A stretch of DNA of 64,000 nucleotides from Clostridiales bacterium (GTDB lineage Bacteria; Bacillota; Clostridia; Christensenellales; CAG-138): positions 60,583 to 124,582 of the forward strand of contig DXWI01000003.1 in assembly GCA_019416935.1 (NCBI GenBank), given 5' to 3'. Position 1 is the first letter of the stretch. Each line of letters opens with the position of its first letter. The notes under the pieces are model-generated. The model saw nothing but the letters and a program-made list of their open reading frames with translations. It made no database searches and was not told where the DNA came from. This document shows, in pieces, positions 7,193-42,373 of the stretch. The translations under genes and the position numbers were made by a program.

Positions 7193-7205
7193 GCGTGCCG
7201 CATCG

Positions 7206-7955: not shown

Positions 7956-7967
7956 GGAGACGTCAAT

Positions 7968-8339
7968 ATGCAGTTCAAGATGGACCACAACAATCTGAAC
8001 GTGACCGATATGGAGCGTTCCATCCGCTTTTACAGGGAGGCGCTCGGCCTGTACCCGGTGCGCGATGTGCGGTCGGAGGACGGCTCGTTCCGCATCGTGT
8101 TCCTTGAGGACGGCGTGTCCGGCTGGCGGTTGGAGCTGACATGGCTCAGGGATCACCCGGAGCCCTACGACCTCGGCGAGAATGAGAGTCATCTGGCCCT
8201 GCGCGTGGACGACTTTGAGGCTGCGCACGAAAAGCACAGCCGCATGGGCTGCATCTGCTATGAAAATGCGTCGATGGGCATCTATTTCATTCACGATCCG
8301 GACGACTACTGGCTGGAGATCTGCCCGGTCCGCGATTAG
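7968..8339 (+). CDS. VOC family protein / lactoylglutathione lyase-like
   Basis: 123 aa. HNNLNVTDMERSIRFYREALGL and the HLALRVDD pattern of glyoxalase I-type VOC proteins. AAGGAG RBS. Confidence 0.8.
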   Translation: MQFKMDHNNLNVTDMERSIRFYREALGLYPVRDVRSEDGSFRIVFLEDGVSGWRLELTWLRDHPEPYDLGENESHLALRVDDFEAAHEKHSRMGCICYENASMGIYFIHDPDDYWLEICPVRD

Positions 8340-8528
8340 GTCCGCGGCAGGGCGCCGGCGCCGCGTTCCGTTCGCTCCGCCCGCAACAGGGTTGCAGAAA
8401 GGACAGCGAGTTTACAATTTTTTCTTATATGAAAATTGCGTGAAATCTGCTCATTTGACACCCTTCCCCACTAGGAAAAACGAGCGTTGTGTGCTATGAT
8501 GACTACACAGTAAGCTCTGGAGGTGCGT

Positions 8529-9344
8529 ATGCGCAGGCGAGTACGGTTAACCCCGTTTGGATATCTTGTTGTTGCGATTCTGGTTCTGCTGCTTTTGGGC
8601 GGGATCTATCTCATCATCCGTGGCATCGGCTCCGGTTCTTCGCCCGATGCTACGCCCACGCCGCCGCTCGTTCCCGGCGCGAGCATTTCGCCCGATCCGG
8701 CCGGCAGCGCAGCGCCCAGTCTCTCTCCCGACCCCACGATGAGCGTCGAGCCGAGCATGACGCCGAACGTGACGGCCCCGCCGACGAATTCGCCGACGCC
8801 GACGCCCACGAACTCGCCCGAGCCGGAGACCAGCCGCACGCCCTCGCCCGATGAGGTGAAGAACGCCAAGGATGGTAAACTCACCACCGGCGGCGTTGTG
8901 CTGCGCGCGGCGCCGAACACGGACGGAGAAATCCTCGGCAAGTATGTCGGCGGCACGAACCTGAAGGTCTATGCCGAATCCGGAGACTACTATCTTGTGC
9001 AGGTCGTCAAGGAAGAGAAATACGGCTACATGGCCAAGAAGTTTGTCGAGGTCAATACCGCCACGCCGGAGCCCATCACGACCTCCGTGCCCACCGGCGC
9101 CGTCGGCGGCACGGTGCGCTCGAGCGTCGTTGCCCTGCGCAGCTCGCCCGACCTGTCCGACAGCGGCAATAAGGTCGGCCAGGTGGAGCAGAACGAGCCG
9201 GTATATATCTACTTCAAGCACACCAACGCTGCGGGCGACACGTTTTATTATATCGAGGTCGCGCGCACGGGCAAAAAGGCCTACGCCTTTGCCGAATATA
9301 TCACCGCGGAGTCGAGCGTCCCCACCGGCACGCCCGCACCGTAA
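8529..9344 (+). CDS. membrane-anchored SH3b-domain protein with Pro/Thr/Ser-rich linker
   Basis: MRRRVRL followed by a TM helix. Then a PT-rich linker and two SH3b-like segments (VLRAAPNTDGEILGKY..., VALRSSPDLSDSGNKVGQV...). GGAGG lies 5 nt before ATG 8529. Confidence 0.7.
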   Translation: MRRRVRLTPFGYLVVAILVLLLLGGIYLIIRGIGSGSSPDATPTPPLVPGASISPDPAGSAAPSLSPDPTMSVEPSMTPNVTAPPTNSPTPTPTNSPEPETSRTPSPDEVKNAKDGKLTTGGVVLRAAPNTDGEILGKYVGGTNLKVYAESGDYYLVQVVKEEKYGYMAKKFVEVNTATPEPITTSVPTGAVGGTVRSSVVALRSSPDLSDSGNKVGQVEQNEPVYIYFKHTNAAGDTFYYIEVARTGKKAYAFAEYITAESSVPTGTPAP

Positions 9345-9359
9345 ACCGCTTGTTAACGG

Positions 9360-9396
9360 CAGGAGATGCGCTCACCGCGTCTCCTGCTTTGTTTTC
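9360..9396 (+). terminator. rho-independent terminator
   Basis: GCAGGAGATGCG / CGCGTCTCCTGC stem followed by TTTGTTTT. Confidence 0.6.
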
Positions 9397-9601
9397 GGTG
9401 TGTTTTGTCGCCCCTTGACGCTTGGATGCTGCCATTGCTTCCGTACCGCTGCTTAAAAAGCGGCGCGGTGCAGGCAACGAAGCAAAACGGCTGTGCGGCG
9501 CTCCGCCCGCTTTGGCCGCTTGTTGCTGTGCCGATCCGGGAACGCGCGGCTGCGCTCCCACCCATATCCTATGCCAACCAAACACATAAAGGAGGAACCA
9601 C

Positions 9602-10708
9602 ATGAAACGCCATTCTCTGCTCGCCTGTCTGCTCGCTGCCCTGCTGCTGATGGGCCTGCTCGGCTGCGGCACGCCCACAGCAGCGCCGGAGCCGACTGCC
9701 GCTTTGACCGCAGAACCAACCGCTGCGCCAACGGCGCCGCCCACGCCCGAACCGACACCCGAGCCGACAGCGTCGCCCGCGCCCGCACCAAAGATCATCA
9801 GCTTCTATTTTGACGAGCCGGATGCCTTTGTTGCCAGCCCGGACAATCCGCTCATGCTGGGCGTTGCCGATGACGACAGCGATGATTCCGGCATCCTTGT
9901 GAGCATAACGCCCAAGGACGATGCGGTGCTTTCCGCAACGCAGGCGGACGCCGGCGAAGCCGTTCTCCGAGCGTTTTGGGCTGCCTATCTGCTGCCGGAG
10001 GAGGCGGACGCGTTTACACAAAGCGCCGTGTTCACCATTTCGGAGTGCGAGCGCACCGCCATCGAGGAGGTCCCGGCGCTGCGGATTTGCTATACCGTGC
10101 AGTATCAGGACTTGCCCATGGACGTTTTGCAATACACGGTCGTTTCCGCCGACAGCAACTATACGTTTCTGTTCTGCGACGCTACGGCGGAGCACAGGTG
10201 GCGCGATGCATTCCTCGCGTCCGCCGCTACGATCGACCTATATTTTGAGGGCGAGACGCTCCCCATGGATACCAGTGGCCTCACGCGCTACCAGCACGAT
10301 ACGGGGCTGGCGCTGTACATGCAGGACGGCATGGTGGATGCCGGTGAAATCGAGGGTTTTGTCTGGTTCCTGTGCGACCCCAACGCGGGCGTTCCCGCGC
10401 TCTCCGTCGCGCGGGAGGATGCTGCGAATCTTGCCGTCATCAACGAAACCATGGAAACGCTGACACTGGAGGAATACGCCGCAATTTCCGCCGAGGCCTA
10501 CGGGCTCAACCCCTATGCACTCGATGATTACGGCAACCTGTACAATGTTTTCACCCGGGAGATCGACGGCGCAACGTATTGCTACTATGTGGTTGTCAAA
10601 AAGGGAACGGACGCTTTTTGGACCTGCAACTTTGCCTGTGCTGCTGCGGATTACGAGCAGTACCTGCCGCAGTTCATGGTGTGGGCCGGCTCGATCGAAA
10701 CGCCCTGA
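9602..10708 (+). CDS. hypothetical lipoprotein
   Basis: 368 aa. Signal peptide with lipobox LLGCG, then a PT/PE-rich linker. AAGGAGG RBS. Confidence 0.6.
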   Translation: MKRHSLLACLLAALLLMGLLGCGTPTAAPEPTAALTAEPTAAPTAPPTPEPTPEPTASPAPAPKIISFYFDEPDAFVASPDNPLMLGVADDDSDDSGILVSITPKDDAVLSATQADAGEAVLRAFWAAYLLPEEADAFTQSAVFTISECERTAIEEVPALRICYTVQYQDLPMDVLQYTVVSADSNYTFLFCDATAEHRWRDAFLASAATIDLYFEGETLPMDTSGLTRYQHDTGLALYMQDGMVDAGEIEGFVWFLCDPNAGVPALSVAREDAANLAVINETMETLTLEEYAAISAEAYGLNPYALDDYGNLYNVFTREIDGATYCYYVVVKKGTDAFWTCNFACAAADYEQYLPQFMVWAGSIETP

Positions 10709-27412: not shown

Positions 27413-28417
27413 ATGGAGACCAAAATTCCAACTGGTTATGCGTCCAAGCTCGGTCTGTACGAAACGCAGAGCGCCATCACTCTGATCAAGAGCACCTTTC
27501 AGGATGCGCTTGCCGCCGTGCTGAATCTCAAGCGCGTGTCCGCGCCCCTGTTCGTCAATCCTGCCGCCGGTCTCAACGATAATCTCAACGGTTATGAACG
27601 CCCCGTCCGCTTCGATATTCCCGCCGCCGGCGTTGACGCCGAGGTGGTGCATTCGCTGGCCAAGTGGAAACGGTTCGCGCTCCACCGCTATGGATTCCAT
27701 GCCGGCCGCGGCCTGTATACCGATATGAACGCCATTCGCCGCGATGAAGAGCTCGACAATCTGCACTCGGTCTACGTCGATCAGTGGGACTGGGAAAAGG
27801 TCATCACGCGCGAGGAGCGCGGCGAGGCGCTGCTCAGGCGCACGGTGGAATCGATCGTCGAGGCCATCAGCTATACGCTGGCGGTCGTGCAGGCCAAGTA
27901 CCCCGTGCTGTCGCTCTCGCTCAGGCGCGACGTCACGTTCATCACTTCGCAGGAATTGCTCGACCGCTATCCGGACAAAACTGCCAAGGAGCGCGAGTAC
28001 CTGTTTGCGAAGGAGCACGGCACGGTCTTTGTCATGCAGATCGGCGACAAGCTCTCGAACGGGGAACCGCACGACGGCCGCGCCCCCGATTATGACGACT
28101 GGGCGCTCAACGGCGATATTCTGTTCTATTACCCGGTGCTCGACTGCGCGTTTGAGATCTCGAGCATGGGCATCCGCGTGGACGAAGTCTCGCTTGCCGC
28201 GCAGCTTCGGAAAGCGGGCTGCGAGGAGCGCGCCGCGCTGCCGTTCCACCACGCGCTGCTGGGCGGCGAATTGCCGCTCACAATCGGCGGCGGCATCGGT
28301 CAGTCGCGCCTGTGCATGATGATGCTCGAAAAGGCGCACATCGGCGAGGTACAGTCCTCGATCTGGGACGCGGCCACGCTCGAAGCCTGCGCCAAGGCCG
28401 GCGTCACGCTGCTGTAG
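27413..28417 (+). CDS. asnA: aspartate--ammonia ligase
   Basis: 334 aa from ATG 27413 (GGAGG RBS). DNLHSVYVDQWDWEKVI and GGGIGQSRLCMMML match AsnA. It ends ...LL then TAG, at the same point as E. coli AsnA. Confidence 0.9.
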   Translation: METKIPTGYASKLGLYETQSAITLIKSTFQDALAAVLNLKRVSAPLFVNPAAGLNDNLNGYERPVRFDIPAAGVDAEVVHSLAKWKRFALHRYGFHAGRGLYTDMNAIRRDEELDNLHSVYVDQWDWEKVITREERGEALLRRTVESIVEAISYTLAVVQAKYPVLSLSLRRDVTFITSQELLDRYPDKTAKEREYLFAKEHGTVFVMQIGDKLSNGEPHDGRAPDYDDWALNGDILFYYPVLDCAFEISSMGIRVDEVSLAAQLRKAGCEERAALPFHHALLGGELPLTIGGGIGQSRLCMMMLEKAHIGEVQSSIWDAATLEACAKAGVTLL

Positions 28418-28434
28418 GCGCTTTTTGTGTTTCT

Positions 28435-28466
28435 GTACTTTTCTTTTTCTAGAAAAAGAAAAGTAC
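28435..28466. terminator. perfect 32-nt palindrome (bidirectional terminator candidate)
   Basis: GTACTTTTCTTTTTCTAGAAAAAGAAAAGTAC. It lies between convergent asnA and the DUF4956 gene. A second hairpin, GGCCGGAGA..TCTCCGGCC, sits at 28513-28544. Confidence 0.5.
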
Positions 28467-28601
28467 CAAAAGAAAAAGTCACCACGGTAGAATATCCCAC
28501 CGAAAAGCATATGGCCGGAGAACGCATAGAGGCGCTCTCCGGCCATTTCACAATTACTGGCTTTCTTTTTGGTTGTTTCCTTTCCAGAAGGGAGAGAAAG
28601 G

Positions 28602-29264
28602 TTACGAAATCAAGTCGCCCTGATGCGCCACAAGCGTCGCGTCGAACACGCCCTGCACGCGCAGGAACTTGTCCACAAAATCAACGTCCGACTCGCGGAT
28701 GCGCAGCTCAACCGTCAGCTCAATGCCGTCGCGCTGCACGGTCTTGCTCTTGATGCGGGCGCGGGGCAGCTGCTTGATCATGCCCTTGATCTGCTGGGAC
28801 GCGCGATCGTCATAGTGCAGGATCAGCAAAAACGGCGACGCCTGACTGCCCTTGATGCCCGTCACGATGAGCAGCAGCAATCCGATCACCAGCACGCCGA
28901 TAAAGCCGACGTCGAGAAATCCCGCGCCGACGGCGAGGCCCTCGCCGACCGCCCAGAACATGAACACCGTATCGATCGGGTCCTTGATCGCGGTGCGGAA
29001 ACGCACGATGGACAGTGCGCCGACCATGCCGAGCGAGAGCGCCATGTTGGACGAGATCATCATCAGCACGAGCGCGGACACCATGGTCAGCATGACGAGA
29101 CTCAGATTAAACGAGCGGGAATAGACCACACCGGCGAACGTCTTGCGATAGACGAAGTAGATGATGAGGCCGATCACCAGCGACGCGACGAGCGAGATGA
29201 CCACGCGCAGCGGGTTCAGCGTTCCCTGAAACAGATCCCCAATGTTGAAAGTCGATGCTCCCAT
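28602..29264 (-). CDS. DUF4956-family membrane protein
   Basis: 220 aa with 4-5 TM segments. It contains the SIVRFRTAIKDPIDTVFMFWAV block that I associate with DUF4956, followed by a soluble C-terminal domain. Confidence 0.7.
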   Translation of the reverse strand: MGASTFNIGDLFQGTLNPLRVVISLVASLVIGLIIYFVYRKTFAGVVYSRSFNLSLVMLTMVSALVLMMISSNMALSLGMVGALSIVRFRTAIKDPIDTVFMFWAVGEGLAVGAGFLDVGFIGVLVIGLLLLIVTGIKGSQASPFLLILHYDDRASQQIKGMIKQLPRARIKSKTVQRDGIELTVELRIRESDVDFVDKFLRVQGVFDATLVAHQGDLIS

Positions 29265-29380
29265 TTGCTTCTAAATCCTCCTTACGGTTCTTTCAAACAA
29301 ACGAATACGGTACAAAACCGGTCTATACAGGCCGGCCCGCTGCGGCAGGCCGGGAAAAACGTGGGTCGCCGGAGCGCGCG

Positions 29381-30109
29381 TCAAAACTCGAACTGCCGGC
29401 AGAACAGGTACTTGCTCGCCGCCGTGCGCTGCGCCGCGCCGAGTTGGATGAGCATGCGGATATAATCCGGCAGGCTCTCATTGAACTTGACCTCAAGGAT
29501 CATGCAGTTTTTGAGCTCCGTCACCGGGTACATGGGCACGTTCGGATTGAACAGATCCGTGGAGCGCAGTCCGGTGCGCACATCCTTGTCGAACGTGATG
29601 CGCACATCCTCCGCCGGAAACACATACGGCTCGCGGTCGTAATCGACGAGCACCTTGGGGCGGAGCTGCTTGAGCTTCATGATACCGAACATCTGGCCCG
29701 CAAACGGCTCCGGCCTGCCGAGCAGAAACCCGTAATCGCCCCTGAGCAGCGCGTCGCACTCGGCGCGCGAGAGGCGCAGGCTGCTCTTTTGGATGTACGG
29801 CCCGTTCTTGTGCTTGCGCTCCAGCTTGATGCTGCTGTCGGAATGGTTGTAGATGCGGATGCGGAACTTGTCGCGCACCTCAATGCCGTCCGCCTTTTCC
29901 TGCACCGCGGAATCCCAGGGATCGTCGAAGTACAGGCTGCGGATGTGGTACTCGCCGCCGTTCTGCGCGGCATACGCATCCTGCGCCATGGTCATCTGCA
30001 AGCGGCGCGAAAGAATCGCGTGGTCGCCGGCATGGATGATATACTTGAGCTCGTGCCGGTAGGGCCGCGTGTTGGCCGCGCCCGCCGCCTTGCCCCTGCG
30101 TCCGCTCAT
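29381..30109 (-). CDS. VTC-domain (polyphosphate-polymerase-like, triphosphate-tunnel) protein
   Basis: 242 aa from ATG 30109. HELKYII, IRSLYFDD, KFRIRIYN, IKLERKHK and VDYDREPY form the alternating charged beta-strand pattern of CYTH/VTC tunnel enzymes. The start overlaps the CotH stop by 1 nt (TGATG). Confidence 0.75.
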   Translation of the reverse strand: MSGRRGKAAGAANTRPYRHELKYIIHAGDHAILSRRLQMTMAQDAYAAQNGGEYHIRSLYFDDPWDSAVQEKADGIEVRDKFRIRIYNHSDSSIKLERKHKNGPYIQKSSLRLSRAECDALLRGDYGFLLGRPEPFAGQMFGIMKLKQLRPKVLVDYDREPYVFPAEDVRITFDKDVRTGLRSTDLFNPNVPMYPVTELKNCMILEVKFNESLPDYIRMLIQLGAAQRTAASKYLFCRQFEF

Positions 30110-33100
30110 CAGCTCACCCCCGTCAGGCTGCTCTTGCGCCCGAATATCTCGTTCATTTCCGCGTCCGACAGGCTGAAGTACTGCTGCACATAGTAGAGAA
30201 AATGCTCCGGCACCTGCTTGGCGGACTCCCGCAGCCGCTCGACGCGGGTCTGCCACGTCGTGTAGCGGATGCTGCCCCAGCGCTTGGTATCGTAGACCAT
30301 CTCGTCGGTGATGTTGGCCTCCAGCTCGTTGATGCGGGCGATCATCCTATCGGTATCGAAGATCTCCACCATCAGCGCACACTTTTCAAGGAACAGCGCG
30401 CGGAAGCTGCTGTTCTTGAGCAGCGCGCGGGAGAGCACCGTCGAAAAGCCCTTGCCCGCGCCGTGACCCGTCTCATGGAAATACTTGGAGAAGAAGTCGC
30501 GCCGCCAACCGGTCGAATACGCCTTGTCCTTCGTGCCGTCGTCATAGTTGAGCGCCCAGTCGAAATCGTACGGAATCCAGCGCCACTTGTTGTCGAGCTG
30601 CTTCGAGCGCCAATACTTGATGTTGCCGGTGTCCGTATTGCCGACATAGATCTCCATGGCACAATACTCGGCAAAGTTCTCCACGTCCATCAGCGAGCAT
30701 ACATAAGCGTAGTTGGACGCGTCCGACAGGTCGTGCTCCTTGGCGTAGCTCACGAGCGCCTGATAATCGAGGTAGCCGTTGCCGGAGATCTCTGCCGCCG
30801 GCCCGTTGCCGTTGCCCACGAGGATGTCGATCTGCTCCGGATCGGGCAGGTTGTACTGCTGCGCGAGGAAATATTTGTTGACCTTCTCCCGCAGGTTGTA
30901 CACGCCCCAGTATTGTCCGTTGATGTACAGCACGACCTGCCGATAGGCCTGCGTGGGCAGGGTGCTCCCGCCATCCTCGAGCAAGCCCTGAATCAGGATG
31001 TCGCGCATCCGTGTAAACATCCAGTCCATGGCGGAGGGCCGCAGCGTCAGGGACTTGTATTCGCTGTAATCGCGGTTTTCAAAAAACGGGTAATTCATAC
31101 TCGTGGAACCGTAGCCAGAGCGGGATACGAGCGCGATGCCCTTCATCTTCTCATAGCGCGAAAACGCGCCGAAGATGCGGCTGAGCACATCGTCCTCGAA
31201 CGCGAGCGAGCCGTTTACGATATAGTCGATGTGCGTTTCCCGCTCCCACTCCATGTCCATCGGATCGGGATGGGTCAGGTGCTGCGCGTTAAAATTGGCG
31301 TACTTGGCAAAATCGCTGTTTGGGCCATGCTCGATGGTATAGCTGCCCGCCGAGTCGCGGCCGCCGCTCTTTTCATAGTAGGTGCTGCCGGCCACATAGA
31401 TGCCGTTTTCCGCGCCGAAATAGTAGTCCGGATCGGAAACGAGGCTCACGATGGGGAGCGTGGTGAGGTGGTTTTCCTCCGTCGCCTCGCCCTGATTGAT
31501 GAAATAGGACGCGGTTGCCACATCGCTGTCGAAACGGCCGCCCTGAAACGCGCGCGCGCGCAGCACCGTCACGCCGGAACCGAGCGTGATCGGCGCGGTA
31601 TAGGCGTTGGATGCCGCCGTCGGGATGCTGCCGTCGGTCGTATAGCGCACGGTCGCGCCCGCGGGGATGCCGATCTCCACGGTCTGTCCGCTCGTATATA
31701 CGCCGGACGGGATGGAGAACGCCGGTTTTTCGGCGTAGGCGCTCATGCCCTCGCCGTTGGCCGTGCCGGGCGTGGGCGTTTTGTAATACATGGTCTTTCC
31801 ATCCATGCCGCGGCCGTACGACACATCCGCGTGTCCTTCGCCGATCTGGAGCTTATCGAGGATGACCGCTTCCGGCGTAAACAAAAAAACCGTGTCCCCA
31901 TCGCCGGAAATGCCGAAATTTGTTTCGAGCGTTTTGGACGGATCGGTCACGTTTTTGCCGGAGGCGAGCACCACAAGGTATTGCCCCGCCCCGATCGTCA
32001 CATCCGGAAACACCCATTTGGCCGGATTCTTGGCGTTGTTGGACAGCGCATAGCCGGACAGATTGATCGGCGCGCCGGAACGGTTGTACAGTTCGATCCA
32101 GTCATAATAACCGCCGTCCGGCTGCAAGAGGTAGCTCTTGTTGGCGTTGATGACCTCGCTGATCATCAGCTCGCCCGTGCCGTAGGGCAGCGCGGCCTGA
32201 TAGGCGGCCGCGCCGGCGGAGGTATTGTTGTAACCGGGCGACGGCTGCGCGGTCTGCTGCCACTCACCCGTTCCGTCCGGCACGCGCGCCATGGACTGAT
32301 CCGTCTCCTGACGACTGTACTCATAGCTGTCGAGGATGCGGCCCGCGGGCGTCGAGAACACGACCGCCTCCTTGTAGGCGGCCAGACCGAACGGCGCCTC
32401 GATCGGATCGACGGCGGTGCCGGTGCGGCCGTTGCAATAAATCAGCAGCGTGCCGTACGCCTCAATGCTCGTGCCCTCGGGCAGCGTATACTTGAGCGGC
32501 TGCGCCGGGTTGTCCGAAATGCCATAGCCGGACAGGTTGATCTCGTTGCCGGTGGTGTTGTACAGCTCGATCCAGTCGCAGTAGGTACCGTCCGGGCCGA
32601 GCAGCGTCGATGCGTTCGACGCCATGAATTCGTTCAGATACACGCCGATGCTTTCGCCCTCGGTGGCGGTGAGCGTCGCAAGAAACGCATCGATGCCGGC
32701 CTGATCGTTCGGGTAGCCGGGACTCGGCAGCGTCTCCACCCACGCGCCGCTCGCATCGCGCGAGAGCGTATAGCCGGAGGAGGCGCTTCGAAGCGCCAGA
32801 CTGTCGATGATCGCGCCCGCCTCGGTCGAGAGCACCAGCTCGTCGTCCGCGGACAGCTTGAACGGCGCGTGCATGCCGCCCTTCGACGTGTCGCCGGAAC
32901 AATAGACGATGACATAGCCGTTCGCCGGAATTCTGGTTCCGGCCGGAAACGTCCACTTGGCGGCGATGAGCTTGTCGTCGGACAGGCCGTATCCGCCGAT
33001 CTCGACCTCCTGATCGGAGGCGTTGTGGAGCTCCACCCAATCCGGATAGTCGCCGGTGTTGTCCGGCACGGTGCCCTTATTGCTCGTCATCACTTCGCTG

Positions 33101-33219
33101 ATCTGAATCGTATGTGTAGACAGGTTTTGGGACGAACCGCTCCTGGTCAGATACACGATGAGCGCGACCAATAAAATCAGCGCCATCGGCACGACCAAAA
33201 CCAATCGCCTGCGTCTCAA
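30109..33219 (-). CDS. CotH-family kinase with N-terminal TM anchor, three lamin-tail domains and a CHB_HEX_C-like domain
   Basis: Three LTD-like units: IQISEVMTSN..DWVELHN, VYLNEFMASN..DWIELYN, LMISEVINAN..DWIELYN. Then VRYTTDGSIPT. The C-terminal CotH blocks are LTLRPSAMDW...VVLYINGQYWGVYNLREK...WIPYDFDWAL. Start proposed at TTG 33219 (GGAAGGAG 9 nt upstream, giving M-RRRR-TM); the track ORF extends to 33357. Confidence 0.8.
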   Translation of the reverse strand: MRRRRLVLVVPMALILLVALIVYLTRSGSSQNLSTHTIQISEVMTSNKGTVPDNTGDYPDWVELHNASDQEVEIGGYGLSDDKLIAAKWTFPAGTRIPANGYVIVYCSGDTSKGGMHAPFKLSADDELVLSTEAGAIIDSLALRSASSGYTLSRDASGAWVETLPSPGYPNDQAGIDAFLATLTATEGESIGVYLNEFMASNASTLLGPDGTYCDWIELYNTTGNEINLSGYGISDNPAQPLKYTLPEGTSIEAYGTLLIYCNGRTGTAVDPIEAPFGLAAYKEAVVFSTPAGRILDSYEYSRQETDQSMARVPDGTGEWQQTAQPSPGYNNTSAGAAAYQAALPYGTGELMISEVINANKSYLLQPDGGYYDWIELYNRSGAPINLSGYALSNNAKNPAKWVFPDVTIGAGQYLVVLASGKNVTDPSKTLETNFGISGDGDTVFLFTPEAVILDKLQIGEGHADVSYGRGMDGKTMYYKTPTPGTANGEGMSAYAEKPAFSIPSGVYTSGQTVEIGIPAGATVRYTTDGSIPTAASNAYTAPITLGSGVTVLRARAFQGGRFDSDVATASYFINQGEATEENHLTTLPIVSLVSDPDYYFGAENGIYVAGSTYYEKSGGRDSAGSYTIEHGPNSDFAKYANFNAQHLTHPDPMDMEWERETHIDYIVNGSLAFEDDVLSRIFGAFSRYEKMKGIALVSRSGYGSTSMNYPFFENRDYSEYKSLTLRPSAMDWMFTRMRDILIQGLLEDGGSTLPTQAYRQVVLYINGQYWGVYNLREKVNKYFLAQQYNLPDPEQIDILVGNGNGPAAEISGNGYLDYQALVSYAKEHDLSDASNYAYVCSLMDVENFAEYCAMEIYVGNTDTGNIKYWRSKQLDNKWRWIPYDFDWALNYDDGTKDKAYSTGWRRDFFSKYFHETGHGAGKGFSTVLSRALLKNSSFRALFLEKCALMVEIFDTDRMIARINELEANITDEMVYDTKRWGSIRYTTWQTRVERLRESAKQVPEHFLYYVQQYFSLSDAEMNEIFGRKSSLTGVS

Positions 33220-33384
33220 AGCTTCAATCTCCTTCCGGTGTTCCCTGCCGCCGGGCGCTCCCAAAGAAGCGCCGGCGCGACGCGAGCCATGCCGCCGCCA
33301 AAAGCGGTACACGAAGCAAGCCGCGCTCAGACGGACACCCTGCATAGCATACCACAAGGCGCCGCATATTCCTATCCCCCAATA

Positions 33385-33636
33385 TCAGAAATTTACAGTT
33401 TCTTCTCGATTATCGGGCAAAAACCGGCCACTCGGCCCATCCGGCGCGCCGCGCCGCCCGCGCATCGAACCGGCAAGGCGCGCTTTGACCCCCGAGCAAG
33501 GCAGGGATTCGGACAGGCGCTTTCTCTCATGCGACAGGAACGCGCGCATCTGCTCGAGCTGCGCCTCGGTCACCCCATGGTCGGAGAAACGCGCCTCCAG
33601 CGCGATGTCCGTGAGCGTCTGCGTCCTCCATTTCAT
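33385..33636 (-). pseudogene. duplicated 3'-end fragment of the transglutaminase gene (DUF4129-like tail)
   Basis: The 83-aa ORF contains LTDIALEARFSDHGVTEAQLEQMRAFLSHERKRLSESLP. This is nearly identical to the last ~45 aa of the 33667-35967 protein. There is no convincing RBS. Confidence 0.45.
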
Positions 33637-33836
33637 GTGCTTGGCAGCGTCCCGGCCGCGCCTCCTTTACAGCACGGCATGGAGATACCGCGCCGCCAGC
33701 CGCTTGAGCGGCGGCAGGGATTCGGACAGGCGCTTTCTTTCATGCGAAAGGAACGCGCGCATCTGCTCGAGCTGCGCCTCGGTCATCCCATGGTCGGAGA
33801 AGCGCGCCTCCAGCGCGATGTCCGTGAGCGCCTGCG
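33500..33836. repeat. 124-bp direct repeat, two copies (33500-33623 and 33713-33836)
   Basis: Aligned by eye: 5 mismatches in 124 nt, with an offset of 213 bp. Confidence 0.85.
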
Positions 33837-35967
33837 GAACTTCCGTTCCGTAACGGCACAGCCGCTGCAGCTCCCGCCATGCGGCCAGAATCCGCTTTTT
33901 GCAGCTTCCCTGCCGGAGCAGCGCCGCCCGTCTCGAGCGCAGTACTCGCCGCCGGAGCACGAGCAGCCCGGCCGCCGCCGGCAGCAGCAGCACGAGCAGC
34001 CATATCGCGCCGCCCGTGTGATTCCGTGCCGGCGGGCTGTCGGAAGATGCGCTCCCCGGTTCCGGTTCGCCGCCTGTCCCCGCGGAGTCGGGCGGCAGCA
34101 CGTCCGGCGTTTGCTGTCCCGCCGTTTCCCCGTGCGCCGGCTCGGCCGTAGTCTGCGGCGGCTCCGTGCCGTCCGGCTCTGTCGTTGCTTCCGGTTCAAG
34201 GTTGGCCGGCGTCTGTTCTTCCGGTTCGGTTGTCGGCTCGGCCGAGGGTTCGGCCGTCGGTTCGGCGGTCGGCGCCGGAGTCGGCACTGGCGTGCTGCCG
34301 GTCACCTCCACGGGCATCCAGCCAAAGCCGTCGAGATAGACCTCCGTCCACGCGTGCGCATCCTCATCGGTCACGCGCGTCCACGCGCCCGCTTCCGCGT
34401 CCACCAGATAGCCGCTCACATACCGGGCCGGTACGCCGAGCGATTGCAGCATGGCGGTGGCGGCGCTGGCAAAGTGCACGCAGTAGCCGCGATGGCTCTC
34501 GGTCAGAAAATACCGGATGAAATCCGCGCCGTTGGGCGCGCGCTCGGCCTCAAGATCATAATAGCCCGCCTGGCGGATATAGGCCGCCACCCGGCTGACG
34601 ATCTCCGCGCGCGGCATGGCGCCGTCGATTCCGGCTGCGGCCGCCAGTCCACGGAGCGTACCGGCAAGCGGCTCCGGCACGCCGGTATACGCCGTTTGCG
34701 CCCATGCGCGATAGGCCGGCTCCTGCGCAGCGCCGCTTTGGAGCGCCGCCGGATTGTCAGCGGGGCGGTAAACCCATGTATACGCCTCCGTGTCCCGGTC
34801 GACGGGCCTTGCGTAGACCTCGCCGGTTTCAGCATCGCCCGCGACGGCATAGTACGGCACATAGGCAAGCTGCGTCGCACCGGAGAGATGCCGGATCTGC
34901 ACGGTTCTCTCCTCGCTGCCGGGCGCGGCCAGAACGGCCGCCGCCGTGACGTCCGCAATCGAAATCTCCTTTGGCGCGCCATCCGCCTGCCGCCACGACG
35001 CGCCGTCATACACGCCCAGCGCCGCGCCGCGAAGATAGAGCTCGCCCGAAACGGAGGCTTTCACCTCGAGCACGGGCGTGCCGGTCGTCCGGCGCGGGCC
35101 GAGCGTGCGCACGTTCACATCGGTATCCGGCCGGCTGGCCGTGATCTGCTGCACCGTCTCCATCAGGGAGGGCGCCTCCGCATCTTCCTCCGACAGGCTG
35201 CTGCGCAGGCTGATGAGCTGCTCGCGCAGCACGTCCGGCCATGCGGCGCGCACGTAGGTTTCGCGCGGCGAGAGCAGCAGCACCGCGCCGCACAGGACAG
35301 CGAGCACCGGCAGATATAAAAACGTCAGCGCCGCGCCGCGCCGGGGCGATGCGCGCCGAACGCTCTGCGGCAGAAGCAGCAGCATCCAGAACAGCAGCGT
35401 GCACAGCACCGCATACAGCGCCGGCGGCTCGTCCATCAGGATCATCGTGACCGCGAAGAACGGCAGTGAAACGACCATGCACGGCGCCGCGGCCGAAAAA
35501 TAGACGATGGACCAGCCGTACAGCAGCAGCACCGGCGCCGCCAGCATGGCGAAGAACAGCGTGCAGCCGGCGAGCTGTTCGGAAGCGGTCATCCCCGTGG
35601 GCAGCGCAATTTCGGAGACGAAATCCACCCCGAGCGCAATGTCGTTGACCACGCCGGAAACCGCAACCTGCGCGCCCACGCGCAGCATGTCCCGCCACTG
35701 GACGCAGACAAAAATCCACGCCGCGGCGAGCAGGAGCAGCATGAACACGCCGATGCGGCGCCCCGCCGTACCCGAAACGGCGAACATCGTCGTCACATAG
35801 ACGGAGAGCAGCGCGCCGATGATGAGCAGCAGCGGCAGCCGCACCGGCAGCGAAAACGCCGTGATGACCGGCAAAAATGTGCCCAGCAGGCCCAAAAAGA
35901 CGAGCAGGCAGCCGGCAGCGAGCGGCGAGGCGAACCATTCGCGCTTTTTCCGTTTTCCTCCGCTCAT
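33667..35967 (-). CDS. transglutaminase-domain membrane protein (TgpA-like) with C-terminal DUF4129-like tail
   Basis: 766 aa with about 6 N-terminal TM helices. Cys-His-Asp core region GYCVHFASAATAMLQSLGVPARYVSGY ... HAWTEVY. Then a PT/PE-rich spacer, a TM helix and the tail. Confidence 0.8.
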   Translation of the reverse strand: MSGGKRKKREWFASPLAAGCLLVFLGLLGTFLPVITAFSLPVRLPLLLIIGALLSVYVTTMFAVSGTAGRRIGVFMLLLLAAAWIFVCVQWRDMLRVGAQVAVSGVVNDIALGVDFVSEIALPTGMTASEQLAGCTLFFAMLAAPVLLLYGWSIVYFSAAAPCMVVSLPFFAVTMILMDEPPALYAVLCTLLFWMLLLLPQSVRRASPRRGAALTFLYLPVLAVLCGAVLLLSPRETYVRAAWPDVLREQLISLRSSLSEEDAEAPSLMETVQQITASRPDTDVNVRTLGPRRTTGTPVLEVKASVSGELYLRGAALGVYDGASWRQADGAPKEISIADVTAAAVLAAPGSEERTVQIRHLSGATQLAYVPYYAVAGDAETGEVYARPVDRDTEAYTWVYRPADNPAALQSGAAQEPAYRAWAQTAYTGVPEPLAGTLRGLAAAAGIDGAMPRAEIVSRVAAYIRQAGYYDLEAERAPNGADFIRYFLTESHRGYCVHFASAATAMLQSLGVPARYVSGYLVDAEAGAWTRVTDEDAHAWTEVYLDGFGWMPVEVTGSTPVPTPAPTAEPTAEPSAEPTTEPEEQTPANLEPEATTEPDGTEPPQTTAEPAHGETAGQQTPDVLPPDSAGTGGEPEPGSASSDSPPARNHTGGAIWLLVLLLPAAAGLLVLRRRVLRSRRAALLRQGSCKKRILAAWRELQRLCRYGTEVPQALTDIALEARFSDHGMTEAQLEQMRAFLSHERKRLSESLPPLKRLAARYLHAVL

Positions 35968-36956
35968 GCGCGCGCCTCCCCTGCGGCGGGCCGTTTCCCA
36001 CCGACATGATAATACGCGCCCGCCGTGGGCGGCACGGACGCCGGCGGCAGCGCGTGCGCCGCGGCCGGACCTGCGAGGAGCCTCCTGAGCAGCGTTTCAA
36101 GCGTCCTTTCGTCCGTCACCCGTTCGGTGTGAATCCTGCCCGCGCCGTCGCGCCACTCGAGCATATGGGCAAGGCCATGCGCGCTGAGCCGGTTGGAGAG
36201 CCAGCTAAGCTCCGACAGCATGGCGTCGAGCGCCGTCGGCGTGCCGGAGAGTTCAAACGTCAGCAGCACCGGCTTGATGCGCGGTTCCATCGGCTCGCGC
36301 ACGATCAGCGAATCCAGCTTGCTCGAGAGCTTCCAGTGCACGCTCACGATCGCGTCGCCCTCGCGGTAGGGCCGCAGCTCGTGCTCCTCGGAAAAACCGC
36401 CGCCCGGCTTCGGCCGAAGGTCGTAGGCCGCGTAGTCGAACAGCTTCGGAACCGGGTCCGGCGGCGCGGCCGCCGGCAGCACCGTCGTGGCTGCTGCCGC
36501 GCACCGGCGCACCGGCAGCGCGATCAGGCCGAGATGGTCGAGCACGCGCACATGCGCCGCCGCATGCAGGATGCAGCCGCAGTGCGCCGTATCGATCGGA
36601 ATGCGGATCGTCTGCGCGCTGCCCGCAGCCAGATAGACGCGCGCGGGGTACGGCTCCGCCCCGGTGAACCGGTTGTGGCTGACGAGCCGAAAGCGCGCAC
36701 CACCGACGGGCAGCGACCCGCGGCCGCCGCTGGTGAGCTGCACGGTCAGTTCCGCCTTTCTGCCGCGCTGCACCATGGCCGGCGCGCTCAGCGTGATGCG
36801 CGCCCCGAGCATGGCGGGCAGGCTGACGGCAAGCGAAATCGCCGGCAGCGCCAGTAGCGCTGCCAGCAGCAGGTAGGAATCGAACTCGGTATAGAACAAA
36901 TGGAAAGCGACCACGCCGATCAGCGTGGCCAGATACAGCATTCTGCGCGCAAACAT
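35964..36956 (-). CDS. DUF58-domain protein
   Basis: 330 aa with two N-terminal TM helices. LRPYREGDAIVSVHWKLSSKLDSLIVREP is the DUF58 signature. 4-nt overlap with the transglutaminase gene. Confidence 0.8.
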   Translation of the reverse strand: MFARRMLYLATLIGVVAFHLFYTEFDSYLLLAALLALPAISLAVSLPAMLGARITLSAPAMVQRGRKAELTVQLTSGGRGSLPVGGARFRLVSHNRFTGAEPYPARVYLAAGSAQTIRIPIDTAHCGCILHAAAHVRVLDHLGLIALPVRRCAAAATTVLPAAAPPDPVPKLFDYAAYDLRPKPGGGFSEEHELRPYREGDAIVSVHWKLSSKLDSLIVREPMEPRIKPVLLTFELSGTPTALDAMLSELSWLSNRLSAHGLAHMLEWRDGAGRIHTERVTDERTLETLLRRLLAGPAAAHALPPASVPPTAGAYYHVGGKRPAAGEARA

Positions 36957-36958
36957 GG

Positions 36959-37936
36959 TTATGCGATGCGCGGCGCGCTCGTGCTCTTGAGCAGCTCATC
37001 GAGCACCGCCGTCGCCGTCGCGCCCGCGCTCTCCGCCTCGGGCGTGAGCAGCAGCCGGTGCGCCACCGTTTCGCGATAGATCAGCTTCACGTCGGCCGGC
37101 AGCACATAGTCGCGCCCCTGCACATAGGCCACGGCGCGCGCCATGGCCGTCACCGCCAGCGACGCGCGCGGGCTTGCGCCCTGCATCACCTTTGGGTGTG
37201 CGCGCGTGCCGCCGTTGAGGCGGATGATATAGTCGAGCACCGCGTCGTCCACAAACACCGCGTCCACGCGCTCGCGCATAGCCATCAGGCCGCCCGGGCC
37301 GACGACCTCGCGCACGCTGTCGAGCGGATTGACCGCACCCTGCCGGCGGCGCAGCATCTCGCGCTCATCTTCCGCGCGCGGATAGCCGATCGACAGGCGC
37401 ACCATAAAGCGGTCCATCTGCGAATCGGGCAGAAGCTGCGTACCGGAAGCGCCGACCGGATTCTGCGTGGCGATGACCACGAACGGCTGCGGCACGGCAT
37501 GGGTCACGCCGTCCACCGTCACCTGCCCCTCCTCCATGGCCTCGAGCAGCGCGGACTGCGTGCGGCTCGTCGCGCGGTTGAGCTCATCCGCGAGAAACAG
37601 GTTGCACAGCACCGCGCCCTCGTGGTATTTCATGGAGTCGGTGGTCTTGTCGTACACGGAAAAGCCGAGAATATCCGATGGCAGCACGTCCGGCGTGAAC
37701 TGCACGCGGTTATAATGGAGCGCCAGCGCCTTGGAAAAGGCGAGCGCCATGGTCGTCTTGCCGACGCCGGGCATGTCCTCGAGCAGGATATGGCCGCGCG
37801 CCAAAATGGCCAGCAATACCCGCACCAACACGGATTCCTTGCCGACGACAGCCTTCCGAACCTCTTCAATGATCGTTTCAACGCCGCTGATTGGAGCGCA
37901 CCTCCCCTTTCGGACGCTGCGCGCGGCAGCGCCCAA
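36959..37936 (-). CDS. MoxR-family AAA+ ATPase
   Basis: LLEDMPGVGKTT (Walker A), LFLADELNRA (Walker B) and VIATQNP. The start is uncertain: TTG 37936 from the track, while a GGGGAGG at about 37905-37912 suggests a shorter N-terminus. Confidence 0.85.
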   Translation of the reverse strand: MGAAARSVRKGRCAPISGVETIIEEVRKAVVGKESVLVRVLLAILARGHILLEDMPGVGKTTMALAFSKALALHYNRVQFTPDVLPSDILGFSVYDKTTDSMKYHEGAVLCNLFLADELNRATSRTQSALLEAMEEGQVTVDGVTHAVPQPFVVIATQNPVGASGTQLLPDSQMDRFMVRLSIGYPRAEDEREMLRRRQGAVNPLDSVREVVGPGGLMAMRERVDAVFVDDAVLDYIIRLNGGTRAHPKVMQGASPRASLAVTAMARAVAYVQGRDYVLPADVKLIYRETVAHRLLLTPEAESAGATATAVLDELLKSTSAPRIA

Positions 37937-40061: not shown

Positions 40062-40925
40062 TCAGCGGACGGGGCTTCCGCAGTATTCGCAGCAGCCGCT
40101 TGCATCCGGCATGGTCGTCGCGCCGCAGGCAGGGCAGACGACCGCCGTTTTGGGAGCGTTCGCTGCGTTGATTTCTTCCCGTACCTGCGTGCGGATTTGC
40201 GTGAGCGCCGCCTTGATCTCCTGCCCCATGTTGTAGTACTCGGCATAGTCCGGGTTCTGCATTCTCGGGTCGGTCATTGCCGCGGGATTGGCGGCCTGAT
40301 TGAGCGCGTTGTTGAGCCCCTGCAGCACGCTGCCCAAGATGTCCGCGCCCGGAATCGGTCTCATCATCGGACGGTTCGCGGCGCCAGGATTGTGGATCTC
40401 GACGCTGGAGCTGTTGAGCCTGAACCGGATTTCATCGAAGTAGGGATGGTTGACGCGGATGATCATATAGAAATCATACTCATATTCATAGCGGGGCGGG
40501 TTGTAGCTCACATGCTCCGTCCTTCCCTCGCTGTCCCTGACCTCGCGTTTGAGCTCGTTTTTGTTCTCCTGAATATCCAGATCGCAGCCGGTCACCTGTG
40601 CATAGGAAATCACATCCGGATTGGCCTGCGAAAGATCGCGTGCGGACGTCACCATGAACATGCCGGCGTCCTCATCCAAAAGCACCTTGGTGTTTCGGCC
40701 CAGCGTTCTGGTGGTATGGAATGCCGCCACCGCTCCGCGATTCGCCTCGCGGTAATCGAGCTGTGCCTTGATCTCCTCGACGGTCGAGCGCCTTCTGTCG
40801 GAAAACCACGGAGAGAGCTTTGCGGCGCACGTCTTGCAGAGGTTTCCGTCCTCCAGCTTTCGGTTGCCCAGCAACCCGATCTTCTCCCCGCACACATCGC
40901 AGTATTTCTTATCAAACAGTCCCAT
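40062..40925 (-). CDS. DUF4428-like zinc-ribbon protein with second C-terminal zinc ribbon
   Basis: 287 aa from ATG 40925 (AAGGAG RBS). N-terminal MGLFDKKYCDVCGEKIG...LCKTCAAKL. C-terminal VVCPACGATTMPDASGCCEYCGSPV. Confidence 0.65.
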   Translation of the reverse strand: MGLFDKKYCDVCGEKIGLLGNRKLEDGNLCKTCAAKLSPWFSDRRRSTVEEIKAQLDYREANRGAVAAFHTTRTLGRNTKVLLDEDAGMFMVTSARDLSQANPDVISYAQVTGCDLDIQENKNELKREVRDSEGRTEHVSYNPPRYEYEYDFYMIIRVNHPYFDEIRFRLNSSSVEIHNPGAANRPMMRPIPGADILGSVLQGLNNALNQAANPAAMTDPRMQNPDYAEYYNMGQEIKAALTQIRTQVREEINAANAPKTAVVCPACGATTMPDASGCCEYCGSPVR

Positions 40926-40954
40926 ATTGCATCTCCTTTCCAAGCATAGCGGCC

Positions 40955-42373
40955 TTACTGCTGTACATCGCCATCGTCAAAGGGATCACCGCATTCCGGG
41001 CAGAACTTGGGCGGGTGTGCCCTGTCCTCCGGCTCCCAGCCGCATTTGTCGCACCGGTATTGGGGAACGCCCGCAGATTTCTTTGCCCCGCACTCGGCGC
41101 AGAATTTTCCCTTGTTCACCGCGCCGCAGGCGCATACCCAGCCGTCCGCGGTCTGCGCGGGCATCGGCTTGCCGCACTCCATGCAGAACTTTCCGGTGTT
41201 GACCGCGCCGCAGGCGCACCACCAGCCGCTGGCGGCGGGCTTGGGCGCGGGCTTCGGTTGACCGCACGCATTGCAGAACCGCCCGGTATTGACTGCGCCG
41301 CAGGCGCACGTCCAACCGTCCGCCGGCGCGGCCTGCTGCGACTCCGGCCGCGGGTATTGGGCTTGCTGTCCCATCTGGAACAGGTTCTGGGCGTTCATGC
41401 CGCCCGCGCCCTGCGCCATGTTCATCCCCATAAAGCCCATAAACGCGCCGGCGTTTTCGTTGGCGGCCGCGGATTTCATGGCCGCTGCCTGCGCGCCCAC
41501 CAGATGCGCTGCCGCCATGTTGGGATTGCGGAACACGGCGCTCTTTTGCAGCTCCTTAATGGTGTTCTCATCCTCTTCGTTCGCCGTGATGGAACTGACA
41601 CCGAAGGATGCGACGGAAATGCCGCGCAGCGCGCCCCACCGCTGGGACAGCACGTCGTTGAGCGCCTCCCCCAATTCCTGCGTGTGGCCGGGAACCGCGC
41701 TGTAACGGATGCCCATGGCGGAGATTTTTGCAAAGGCGGGCTGCAGCGCGGTCAGCAGCTCGGTCTTTAGCTGACTGTCGATCCTGTCGCGGGTGTAGTC
41801 CGTGCTGACATTGCCGCACACGTTTTTATAGAACAGCATGGGATCGGTGAGCTTGTAGGAATACTCGCCAAAGCACTTCACGCCGATGTCCATGTCAAGG
41901 CCGATGTTCTGATCGACCACGCGGAAGGGCACGGGGCTTGCGGTACCGTACTTGTTGCCGAGGATCTCCTTGACATTGAAAAAATACACCCGCTGATCCT
42001 TGCCGGTATCGCCGCCCATGGTAAAGCGCTTTTTGAGCGTTTCCCACGAGCCCTTGATCCCCTGGCCCAGTCCCCCATAAAGGATGGTGGGCTCCGTGGA
42101 GCTGTCCCACACGAACTCGCCGGCCTCGGCCGAGAACTCGACGATAGCGCCCTGCTCAACGATCATCATGCACTGCCCCTCGTTGACGGCGATGATGGAG
42201 CCGTTGGAGATGATGTTGTCCTCGCCCCTGGTATTGCTGCTGCGGCCGGAGGTGCGCTTCACGCCCTTTGTGACCAGCACGTTCTCCGGCATGGCGTCAC
42301 AGTAGAAGAACTCCCGCCACTGATCCGCCAGCACGCCGCCGAGCGCACCGATGCCCGCTTTCAAAAGTCCCAT
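40955..42373 (-). CDS. SPFH/Band-7-like protein (YdjI/COG4260-like) with four C-terminal zinc ribbons
   Basis: 472 aa. The N-terminal ~330 aa resemble the 'virion core protein/SPFH' family. Then a Gln/Ala/Met-rich linker. Then GWTCACGAVNTGRFCNACG, GWWCACGAVNTGKFCMECG and GWVCACGAVNKGKFCAECG, plus YRCDKCGW...FCPECG. Confidence 0.7.
   Translation of the reverse strand: MGLLKAGIGALGGVLADQWREFFYCDAMPENVLVTKGVKRTSGRSSNTRGEDNIISNGSIIAVNEGQCMMIVEQGAIVEFSAEAGEFVWDSSTEPTILYGGLGQGIKGSWETLKKRFTMGGDTGKDQRVYFFNVKEILGNKYGTASPVPFRVVDQNIGLDMDIGVKCFGEYSYKLTDPMLFYKNVCGNVSTDYTRDRIDSQLKTELLTALQPAFAKISAMGIRYSAVPGHTQELGEALNDVLSQRWGALRGISVASFGVSSITANEEDENTIKELQKSAVFRNPNMAAAHLVGAQAAAMKSAAANENAGAFMGFMGMNMAQGAGGMNAQNLFQMGQQAQYPRPESQQAAPADGWTCACGAVNTGRFCNACGQPKPAPKPAASGWWCACGAVNTGKFCMECGKPMPAQTADGWVCACGAVNKGKFCAECGAKKSAGVPQYRCDKCGWEPEDRAHPPKFCPECGDPFDDGDVQQ

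Follow-up and report, generated by a model that had tools for sequence, protein, structure and literature searches.

Three protein families, the CotH kinases, the VTC-domain proteins (which include the polyphosphate (polyP) polymerase of yeast) and the membrane proteins of family DUF4956, are encoded side by side in many bacterial taxa. Here we describe the operon structure, domain identities, catalytic residues, predicted topologies and linkage across taxa of one such trio, located on a stretch of 64,000 nucleotides from a Clostridiales bacterium (GenBank assembly GCA_019416935.1, contig DXWI01000003.1, positions 60,583 to 124,582 of the forward strand), hereafter called the window. An earlier note, made from the sequence alone, had proposed that the three genes specify an extracytoplasmic phosphorylation module fed by a polyP-type machine, and knew of no experimental description of the trio.

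In Gram-positive bacteria, cotH, a poly-phosphate polymerase gene and the genes for DUF4956 and DUF4832 form an accessory group contiguous with pel operons, and a regulation via phosphorylation was speculated upon (Whitfield et al., 2020; PMC7112168). The window resembles this accessory set in the three families, in their common strand and, for the most part, gene order, and in the export of CotH. However, it shows no contiguity with pel and no DUF4832 downstream, and its CotH is about 440 residues longer than the pel-linked one, with an anchor, three lamin-tail domains (LTDs) and a CHB_HEX_C domain where the latter has a lipoprotein signal. In Streptococcus intermedius, SIR_1594 (CotH), SIR_1593 (VTC) and SIR_1592 (DUF4956) have each been deleted in a study published in mBio in 2025 (PMC12345266). 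The claim that the trio lacks experimental description is therefore outdated. Loss of SIR_1594 or SIR_1592 halved aggregation in sputum medium, DUF4956 was described as an MgtC-like transmembrane (TM) part followed by an ACT domain, and the arrangement was stated to be absent outside the Pel locus (PMC12345266).

In Clostridium perfringens, the trio genes were listed without interpretation in 2010 as part of NELoc-2, a locus associated with necrotic enteritis (PMC2879425). This locus encodes a VTC domain, a “tubulin/FtsZ” membrane protein, a CotH protein, a HEAT-repeat protein and a chitin-synthase-like glycosyltransferase (GT). A plasmid locus of Planococcus maritimus matches it, and its membrane protein, of 226 aa, bears the annotation DUF4956. 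In both, the order is VTC-DUF4956-CotH, and the trio is followed by genes for a protein of 685-689 aa, a HEAT-repeat protein and a processive, chitin-synthase-like GT of family 2 (GT2); the window has none of these additional genes. The trio is hence already published as a gene set, and its novelty is below what the earlier note assumed. As far as the searchable literature shows, the pel-independent form with an LTD-bearing CotH is without description.

Two known systems contain single members of the trio. The yeast VTC complex, in which Vtc4 is combined with a TM channel of Vtc1 and Vtc2/Vtc3, makes polyP and, in a coupled process, translocates it along a path lined by positive charges. The window shares with it the VTC tunnel domain, the catalytic residues, the obligatory pairing of the enzyme with a membrane component and, as we infer, a product destined for the non-cytosolic side. 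It differs by the lack of an SPX domain, by a catalytic domain that is a separate soluble protein and by the attached exported kinase. In Bacillus, CotH (5JD9/5JDA) is a protein of about 360 aa that acts on CotB and CotG in the mother cell during coat assembly. The window CotH has a homologous kinase domain with both catalytic aspartates; unlike Bacillus CotH, it is membrane-anchored and predicted to be extracytoplasmic, has an additional 640 residues and is encoded beside VTC-DUF4956.

Operon structure and linkage within and outside pel loci

The three genes form a self-contained, well-delimited and strongly conserved operon (Table 1). On the minus strand, from 33219 to 28602, three collinear open reading frames (ORFs) follow one another in the order cotH, VTC-domain gene, DUF4956 gene, all with a coding-type composition (GC content at third codon positions of 0.78-0.85). 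The TGA of cotH (30111..30109) and the ATG of the VTC gene (30109..30107) have one A in common, an overlap that suggests translational coupling, and the 116-nt gap between the VTC and DUF4956 genes contains a ribosome binding site, AAGGAGG. Rereading of the sequence found the layout given in the earlier note, including the TGATG overlap, exact to the base.

Linkage was evaluated in 160 loci, made up of 80 species-level genome loci around VTC homologues and 80 more divergent metagenome loci (GC 31-66%). The ORFs of these loci were searched with hidden Markov models iteratively built from the window proteins, and loci with enough flanking sequence were counted as evaluable. DUF4956 adjoins VTC in all 139 evaluable loci, and a same-strand CotH gene adjoins the pair in 92 of 98. 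The co-occurrence stated in the earlier note is thus borne out, the trio behaving as a unit.

According to the CotH protein and the presence of pel genes, the 98 loci fall into five classes. Most (64) have a short CotH of about 590 aa directly downstream of pelD-E-A(DA)-F-G, these pel genes being confirmed by Pfam on cluster representatives. The class of the window, with a long LTD-bearing CotH of about 1000-1100 aa and no pel genes, accounts for 24 loci, and clustering revealed no conserved neighbours in it. A short CotH without pel genes occurs in three loci, a long CotH with pel genes in one, and CotH is absent from six. The trio without pel thus makes up 27 of the 98 loci, about a quarter, which corrects the published statement that the arrangement is confined to the Pel locus. 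DUF4832 was found in 33 related loci. In the window, none of PelD, PelE, PelA(DA), PelF and PelG (tblastn with representatives, E 1e-3), and neither DUF4832 (tblastn) nor a GT4 homologue, was detectable over the whole 64 kb.

In the loci devoid of CotH, another exported protein often lies beside VTC-DUF4956. In one of them (L017, 8374-11385), a membrane-anchored protein of 358 aa with two LTDs and no kinase domain replaces CotH directly upstream of the pair, which hints that LTDs themselves relate to the VTC-DUF4956 product. Another (L030) has a Cthe_2159 carbohydrate-binding lipoprotein. In a diderm locus (L090; Ga0078972_1001143, 6531-10401), a homologue of the phosphate-selective porin O/P (Pfam, 2.7e-45) is found upstream of VTC-DUF4956 and a secreted propeller protein of SdiA-regulated type downstream. 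The porin is an independent, if single, indication that a phosphate anion crosses the envelope, and loci of this type may represent a Gram-negative version of the module. A published table also places the DUF4956 gene of Bacteroides thetaiotaomicron (BT3498) next to that of a DUF2490 protein (BT3499).

Other surroundings are equally varied. A Pseudobutyrivibrio plasmid carries the trio within a large heteropolysaccharide cluster. Two low-GC loci with the order VTC-DUF4956-CotH (L101, 5722-7836; L122, 4183-6344) have genes for an OmpR-type response regulator and a histidine kinase immediately upstream, and in the former a DUF3160 protein gene follows the trio. With an obligate VTC-DUF4956 pair and a trio that occurs independently of pel, the module appears as a general-purpose unit plugged into different surface-polymer systems. 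This character holds whatever the mechanism and narrows the range of worthwhile experiments.

DUF4956 proteins 99-100% identical to that of the window are encoded on more than 100 gut-metagenome contigs, one of them named Candidatus Aphodomorpha sp. (Clostridia), and the bacterium of the window is taken to be a gut member of the Clostridia related to this genus. A metagenome scan with one distant protein as query (P0256) gave no matches and was repeated with an alignment query. The sole candidate for a natural VTC-DUF4956 fusion (P0436, 354 aa) lacks both ends of the VTC part, which is joined by unrelated residues, and was set aside as a frameshift or deletion artefact; a DUF4956-DUF4832 read-through in locus L087 likewise looks like a frameshift.

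Domains, catalytic residues and predicted topology

The VTC protein consists of a single domain that matches the Pfam VTC family (PF09359) with 125 bits against a curated cut-off of 23 (E 4.3e-36). Used alone, the protein gave no phmmer match in the PDB, which holds no bacterial VTC member; a profile of 48 diverse homologues, the most distant with 35% identity, recovers yeast Vtc4 (3g3q, catalytic domain) with an E-value of 3e-11. Residues were mapped by counting positions along the profile alignment, and the register was checked by the recovery of R264-L-R266 and E426. Residues K200, R264/R266, E279/K281, Y359/R361, R373, E426/K428 and S457/K458 of Vtc4 correspond in this way to K22, R83/R85, E97/K99, Y157/R159, R170, E206/K208 and S232/K233 of the window protein, respectively. 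All are kept in the latter, and all are invariant or nearly so across the 48 sequences. The R264A/R266A/E426N triple mutant is the standard catalytically impaired form of yeast Vtc4. The assignment of this protein to the triphosphate-tunnel enzymes, read in the earlier note from its alternating charged strands, therefore extends to the catalytic and tunnel residues of Vtc4.

No hydrophobic segment is present in the window VTC protein or in any of 83 VTC homologue ORFs, and neither the SPX domain nor the covalently attached C-terminal TM domain of eukaryotic Vtc2/3/4 is found in its 242 residues. Many of the closest representatives of the VTC clusters at 50% identity (P0121-P0156, P0183) are extended at the N-terminus by about 90-390 residues. 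The extensions inspected are charged and rich in Pro/Ala or Lys/Glu, none with a Pfam domain, and the long ones of 180-390 aa are of low complexity.

The CotH protein matches the CotH kinase family (PF08757) with 144 bits against a curated cut-off of 23.8 (E 1e-41). It also contains three LTD stretches (2e-48), a CHB_HEX_C_1 domain (1e-16) and an Fn3_assoc domain (1.6e-11), so that the architecture proposed in the earlier note, a TM anchor followed by three LTDs and a CHB_HEX_C-like domain, is recovered by Pfam and hydropathy. Here too, the single protein found no match in the PDB by phmmer and only a profile search did: a profile of 33 VTC-linked CotH kinase domains matches Bacillus cereus CotH (5jd9) with an E-value of 9e-30. 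D863 and D885 align with D224 and D247 of the B. cereus protein, equivalent to D228 and D251 of B. subtilis CotH, in which the mutants D228Q and D251A are each catalytically inactive. Both aspartates are invariant in the 33 aligned sequences, which suggests that the window CotH is not a pseudokinase.

The N-terminus of the protein reads M-RRRR-LVLVVPMALILLVALIVYL, and this hydrophobic stretch is its only one. With a single anchor and the positive-inside rule, the remaining 1010 residues or so are predicted to lie outside the membrane. The kinase domain is hence expected outside the cell, as had been proposed, and not in the cytoplasm. The homologues agree with this topology: most long CotH proteins with a complete N-terminus have a basic stretch followed by a hydrophobic anchor of about 20 residues, and most short ones have lipoprotein signals such as LLLSGC or LILSGC. 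Several short CotH lipoproteins of Collinsella (L036, L041, L064 and others) begin with MSRRRLFEAAAGALLLSGC, which contains a twin-arginine-like motif ahead of the lipobox; these proteins may leave the cell folded via the Tat pathway.

The third protein matches DUF4956 (PF16316) with 34.9 bits against a curated cut-off of 30.6 (E 1.6e-8), an assignment that is also precomputed in Pfam for thousands of homologues. In agreement with its description as polytopic, five TM helices are predicted consistently by hydropathy and two AlphaFold runs (residues 18-42, 50-71, 74-92, 96-113 and 117-137). They are followed at residues 143-213 by a domain modelled by AlphaFold as beta-alpha-beta-beta-alpha-beta, of ACT/ferredoxin-like type. 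The block S77-x-GMVGALSIVRFRTAxKDPxD98...FW104 is essentially invariant in 70 sequences with identities down to 33%. From the positive-inside rule, the N-terminus is predicted outside and the C-terminus inside, so that the RFRTAxK loop would be cytoplasmic, as would the ACT-like domain.

The general plan of about five predicted TM helices and a C-terminal ACT-like domain may also be that of the MgtC/SapB/YhiD family, to which sequence and fold similarity is weak. Four of five DUF4956 proteins score 10-16 bits against MgtC (PF02308; cut-off 31.4), the window protein itself giving no match at E-values up to 10. The hhalign comparison with Escherichia coli YhiD covers 137 collinear columns with an E-value of 1e-3 and a probability of 22%. 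With Foldseek, the model matches an ACT domain and the C-terminal domain of MgtC, in every case with E > 0.01 and thus not significantly. In contrast to DUF4956, the MgtC/SapB/YhiD proteins have no link to VTC or CotH, and the GMVGALSIVRFRTAxKDP motif is DUF4956's own.

Possible roles of the trio

We favor a relay across three compartments, VTC being inside the cell, DUF4956 in the membrane and CotH outside, where it would modify a surface or matrix polymer; as a whole, this reading is given a probability of about 0.45. Most likely, the soluble VTC enzyme would lengthen a phosphate chain in the cytoplasm with gamma-phosphates taken from ATP, DUF4956, with its basic VRFRTAxKDP loop predicted on the cytoplasmic face, would dock the enzyme and pass the anionic product outward, and the anchored CotH kinase would phosphorylate a polymer outside. 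In sister loci, the target would plausibly be an exopolysaccharide, either Pel, the product of a chitin-synthase-like GT2 or a heteropolysaccharide. VTC and DUF4956 would in this way supply a phosphoryl donor in a compartment that has no ATP. The relay appears as the most economical reading because the yeast VTC complex provides a precedent and because CotH has no obvious ATP supply outside a Gram-positive cell. The recurrence of the trio beside several exopolysaccharide systems, in sampled loci and annotated plasmids, is also in its favor, as is the altered Pel-dependent aggregation of S. intermedius after deletion of the CotH or DUF4956 gene. Within the relay, the specific proposal that polyP serves as the phosphoryl donor of CotH is a tentative one that we would sooner doubt than adopt.

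In bacteria, polyP is at present ascribed to PPK1 and PPK2 and regarded as intracellular. It is conceivable, if rather unlikely, that a VTC-type polymerase constitutes a third bacterial route to polyP, that DUF4956 secretes the product and that CotH kinases use secreted polyP instead of ATP. If true, this would add to bacterial polyP a eukaryote-like membrane-coupled polymerase with a dedicated export route, and would amount to an ATP-independent extracellular phosphorylation found broadly among gut Firmicutes and Actinobacteria and, in a porin-linked form, in diderms. Such a system would account for kinase activity outside a cell that has no extracellular ATP, and would introduce a new modification step for biofilm matrix polymers, including streptococcal Pel and the NELoc-2 product.

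Several points weigh against the relay. PolyP synthesis, translocation by DUF4956, the role of polyP as a donor for CotH and the identity of the CotH substrate are all inferred, in whichever bacterium is considered. To our knowledge, no enzyme of the protein-kinase fold uses polyP, and no candidate substrate of CotH is visible in the window. ExExK is the motif of the hydrolytic triphosphate-tunnel enzymes, and the first strand of the bacterial VTC family reads RHELK, with an invariant Glu, where Vtc4 has RQTTK; being nearer to the hydrolytic motif, this strand indicates that the VTC chemistry may differ. The membrane partner, with five TM helices and an ACT-like domain, is unrelated to the 3-TM DUF202-type domain of yeast, and its TM part is modelled with low confidence (predicted local distance difference test of about 50-60, vs. 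about 80 for the C-terminal domain). From its weak similarities, DUF4956 appears MgtC-like rather than channel-like in character, and proteins of the MgtC family are not known as channels. In Deinococcus, an exported CotH occurs without adjacent VTC, so that exported CotH does not always need a VTC supply; VTC-DUF4956 is nearly always accompanied by CotH but the converse is not true, and the dependence is therefore asymmetric. Finally, in S. intermedius, deletion of the VTC gene SIR_1593 was without aggregation or Pel phenotype, and deletion of the DUF4956 gene raised the Pel signal whereas deletion of the CotH gene lowered it (PMC12345266), a pattern that does not fit with a simple linear supply chain. 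The idea of a polyP-fed extracellular kinase put forward in the earlier note thus agrees with the topology, the residues and the context (obligate pair, exported partners, porin); the silent VTC deletion, the Deinococcus CotH and the MgtC-like character of DUF4956 call for caution.

The product of VTC, polyP or another, might instead be exported for its own sake and serve the matrix or envelope as an anionic component, for example one able to neutralize or cross-link cationic polysaccharides such as Pel. An LTD-bearing CotH would then bind or organize the polymer, or phosphorylate other targets with a different donor, and would be a co-worker of the pair rather than its client. This agrees with the strong association with Pel and with VTC-DUF4956 being the invariant core, CotH being missing from six of the 98 loci, one of which has the LTD-only protein and one, diderm, only the porin O/P. 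We nevertheless find it doubtful, since the conservation of the CotH aspartates in 33/33 sequences argues for an enzymatic role tied to the pair, and since the VTC deletion was silent in S. intermedius. The DUF4956 and CotH deletions, with their opposite effects on the Pel signal, can be read as a sign of a regulatory or sensing device without transport, CotH acting separately outside. An MgtC-like, ACT-bearing membrane protein and a tunnel enzyme, with some small phosphate compound as its product or substrate of hydrolysis, would then tune exopolymer production or membrane energetics from inside. MgtC has indeed been described as a regulator of ATP synthase and PhoR, the similarity of DUF4956 to it is weak but repeated (the sub-threshold Pfam scores and the collinear YhiD alignment), the C-terminal domain is modelled with an ACT-like fold, and one Glu of the hydrolase-type motif is kept in VTC. 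We regard such a device as quite doubtful: the MgtC relationship reaches only 22% hhalign probability, the full set of Vtc4 polymerase residues is conserved, and the exported neighbour of the pair and the porin O/P are left unexplained.

Two further readings have much less in their favor. Bacterial LTDs often accompany extracellular phosphoesterases, and the porin O/P neighbour of the diderm locus could likewise point to phosphate scavenging and storage, the surface protein capturing phosphate polymers, phosphate entering via DUF4956 and VTC storing it as polyP. This is very improbable, as Vtc4-type enzymes use ATP and not imported Pi, scavenging is not the work of a kinase, the trio has no linked genes for Pho-type transport or phosphatases, and the link with exopolysaccharide loci would remain unexplained. 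A classical spore-coat kinase system acting in sporulation, as in Bacillus subtilis, would account for the family membership of CotH and its conserved catalytic residues. It is close to refuted by the signal anchor and the 640-residue ectodomain extension of the window CotH, and by the frequency of the trio in non-sporulating Collinsella and, according to the literature, its presence in streptococci and bifidobacteria. Nor is the sporulation angle supported by the surroundings, where neither cotG- or cotB-like genes for Ser-rich substrates nor sporulation genes adjoin the trio, the neighbours being a MoxR/transglutaminase operon on one side and asnA/deoD on the other.

Features and surroundings of the operon

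Table 1. Features of the CotH-VTC-DUF4956 operon (window coordinates; residue numbers refer to the encoded protein).
Feature	Position	Strand	Basis
Shine-Dalgarno sequence GGAAGGAG, 9 nt 5' of the cotH TTG start (33219)	33229..33236	-	sequence reading
cotH-family gene, 1036 aa: signal anchor, 3 LTDs, CHB_HEX_C/Fn3_assoc, C-terminal CotH kinase domain	30109..33219	-	ORF, TTG start, Pfam
Signal anchor LVLVVPMALILLVALIVYL, residues 6-24, after RRRR; predicted N-in/C-out	33148..33204	-	Kyte-Doolittle 3.12
Lamin-tail domain 1, residues ~33-150 (estimated bounds); motif IQISEV...DWVELHN at residue 38	32770..33123	-	Pfam LTD
Lamin-tail domain 2, residues ~188-312 (estimated bounds); motif VYLNEF...DWIELYN	32284..32658	-	Pfam LTD, translation
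Lamin-tail domain 3, residues 347-458 (393-504 of the 1082-aa ORF)	31846..32181	-	best Pfam LTD stretch
CHB_HEX_C_1/Fn3_assoc domain, residues 504-569	31513..31710	-	Pfam 1e-16, 1.6e-11
CotH kinase domain, residues 641-1036 (Pfam core 713-1002); D863, D885 catalytic; K693, E778 conserved	30112..31299	-	profile match
TGATG, overlap of cotH stop and VTC start	30107..30111	-	sequence reading
VTC-domain (triphosphate tunnel) protein, 242 aa, predicted soluble, cytoplasmic	29381..30109	-	Pfam VTC, profile match to Vtc4
DUF4956 membrane protein, 220 aa: 5 predicted TM helices, C-terminal ACT/ferredoxin-like domain	28602..29264	-	Pfam, hydropathy, AlphaFold
Intrinsic-terminator-like hairpin, 15 bp (10 G-C pairs) and U-tract, ends the operon	28511..28546	-	fold z-score -6.8 for 28405-28605

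In a contig of the same species (L003), a gene caller likewise placed the cotH start at this TTG, for a protein of 1036 aa. A sigma-70 consensus scan found no promoter on the operon strand. Rfam gave no match at gathering thresholds in the whole window, and between 28300 and 34200, at E-values up to 1, it revealed no regulatory RNA 5' of cotH, such as a c-di-GMP riboswitch, the only signal being hairpin noise at the terminator palindrome. NCBIfam has no model for the CotH, VTC or DUF4956 protein of the window.

Directly upstream of cotH, at 33667-37936 on the minus strand, lies an operon for a MoxR-type AAA+ ATPase (AAA_3) and a TgpA-like membrane transglutaminase. It also encodes a 330-aa protein that has no Pfam match and occupies the usual position of DUF58. 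This operon neighbours the trio only in contigs of the same species, not in other genera. A direct repeat of 124 nt has copies at 33500-33623 and 33713-33836 that are 96% identical. In its upstream copy lies the coding sequence for the last ~40 residues of the transglutaminase (gene at 33667..35967, minus strand). The second copy, intergenic before cotH, accounts for the greater part of an 83-aa ORF (33385..33636, minus strand) in which the TDIALEARFSDHG.TEAQLEQMRAFLSHERKRLSESLP segment recurs; this ORF is also called in contigs of the same species.

Downstream of the trio are asnA and then deoD, the gene for a purine nucleoside phosphorylase. Between the convergent asnA and trio, at 28413-28486, an AT-rich, near-perfect palindrome with a 14-bp stem (...GGUACUUUUCUUUUUCUAGAAAAAGAAAAGUAC...) gives spurious matches to microRNA families on both strands and is probably the asnA terminator or a bidirectional terminator. 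Farther away, at 40062-42373 on the minus strand, the gene of a DUF4428 zinc-ribbon protein adjoins that of an SPFH/Band-7 protein which also has a zinc ribbon; both seem unrelated to the trio.

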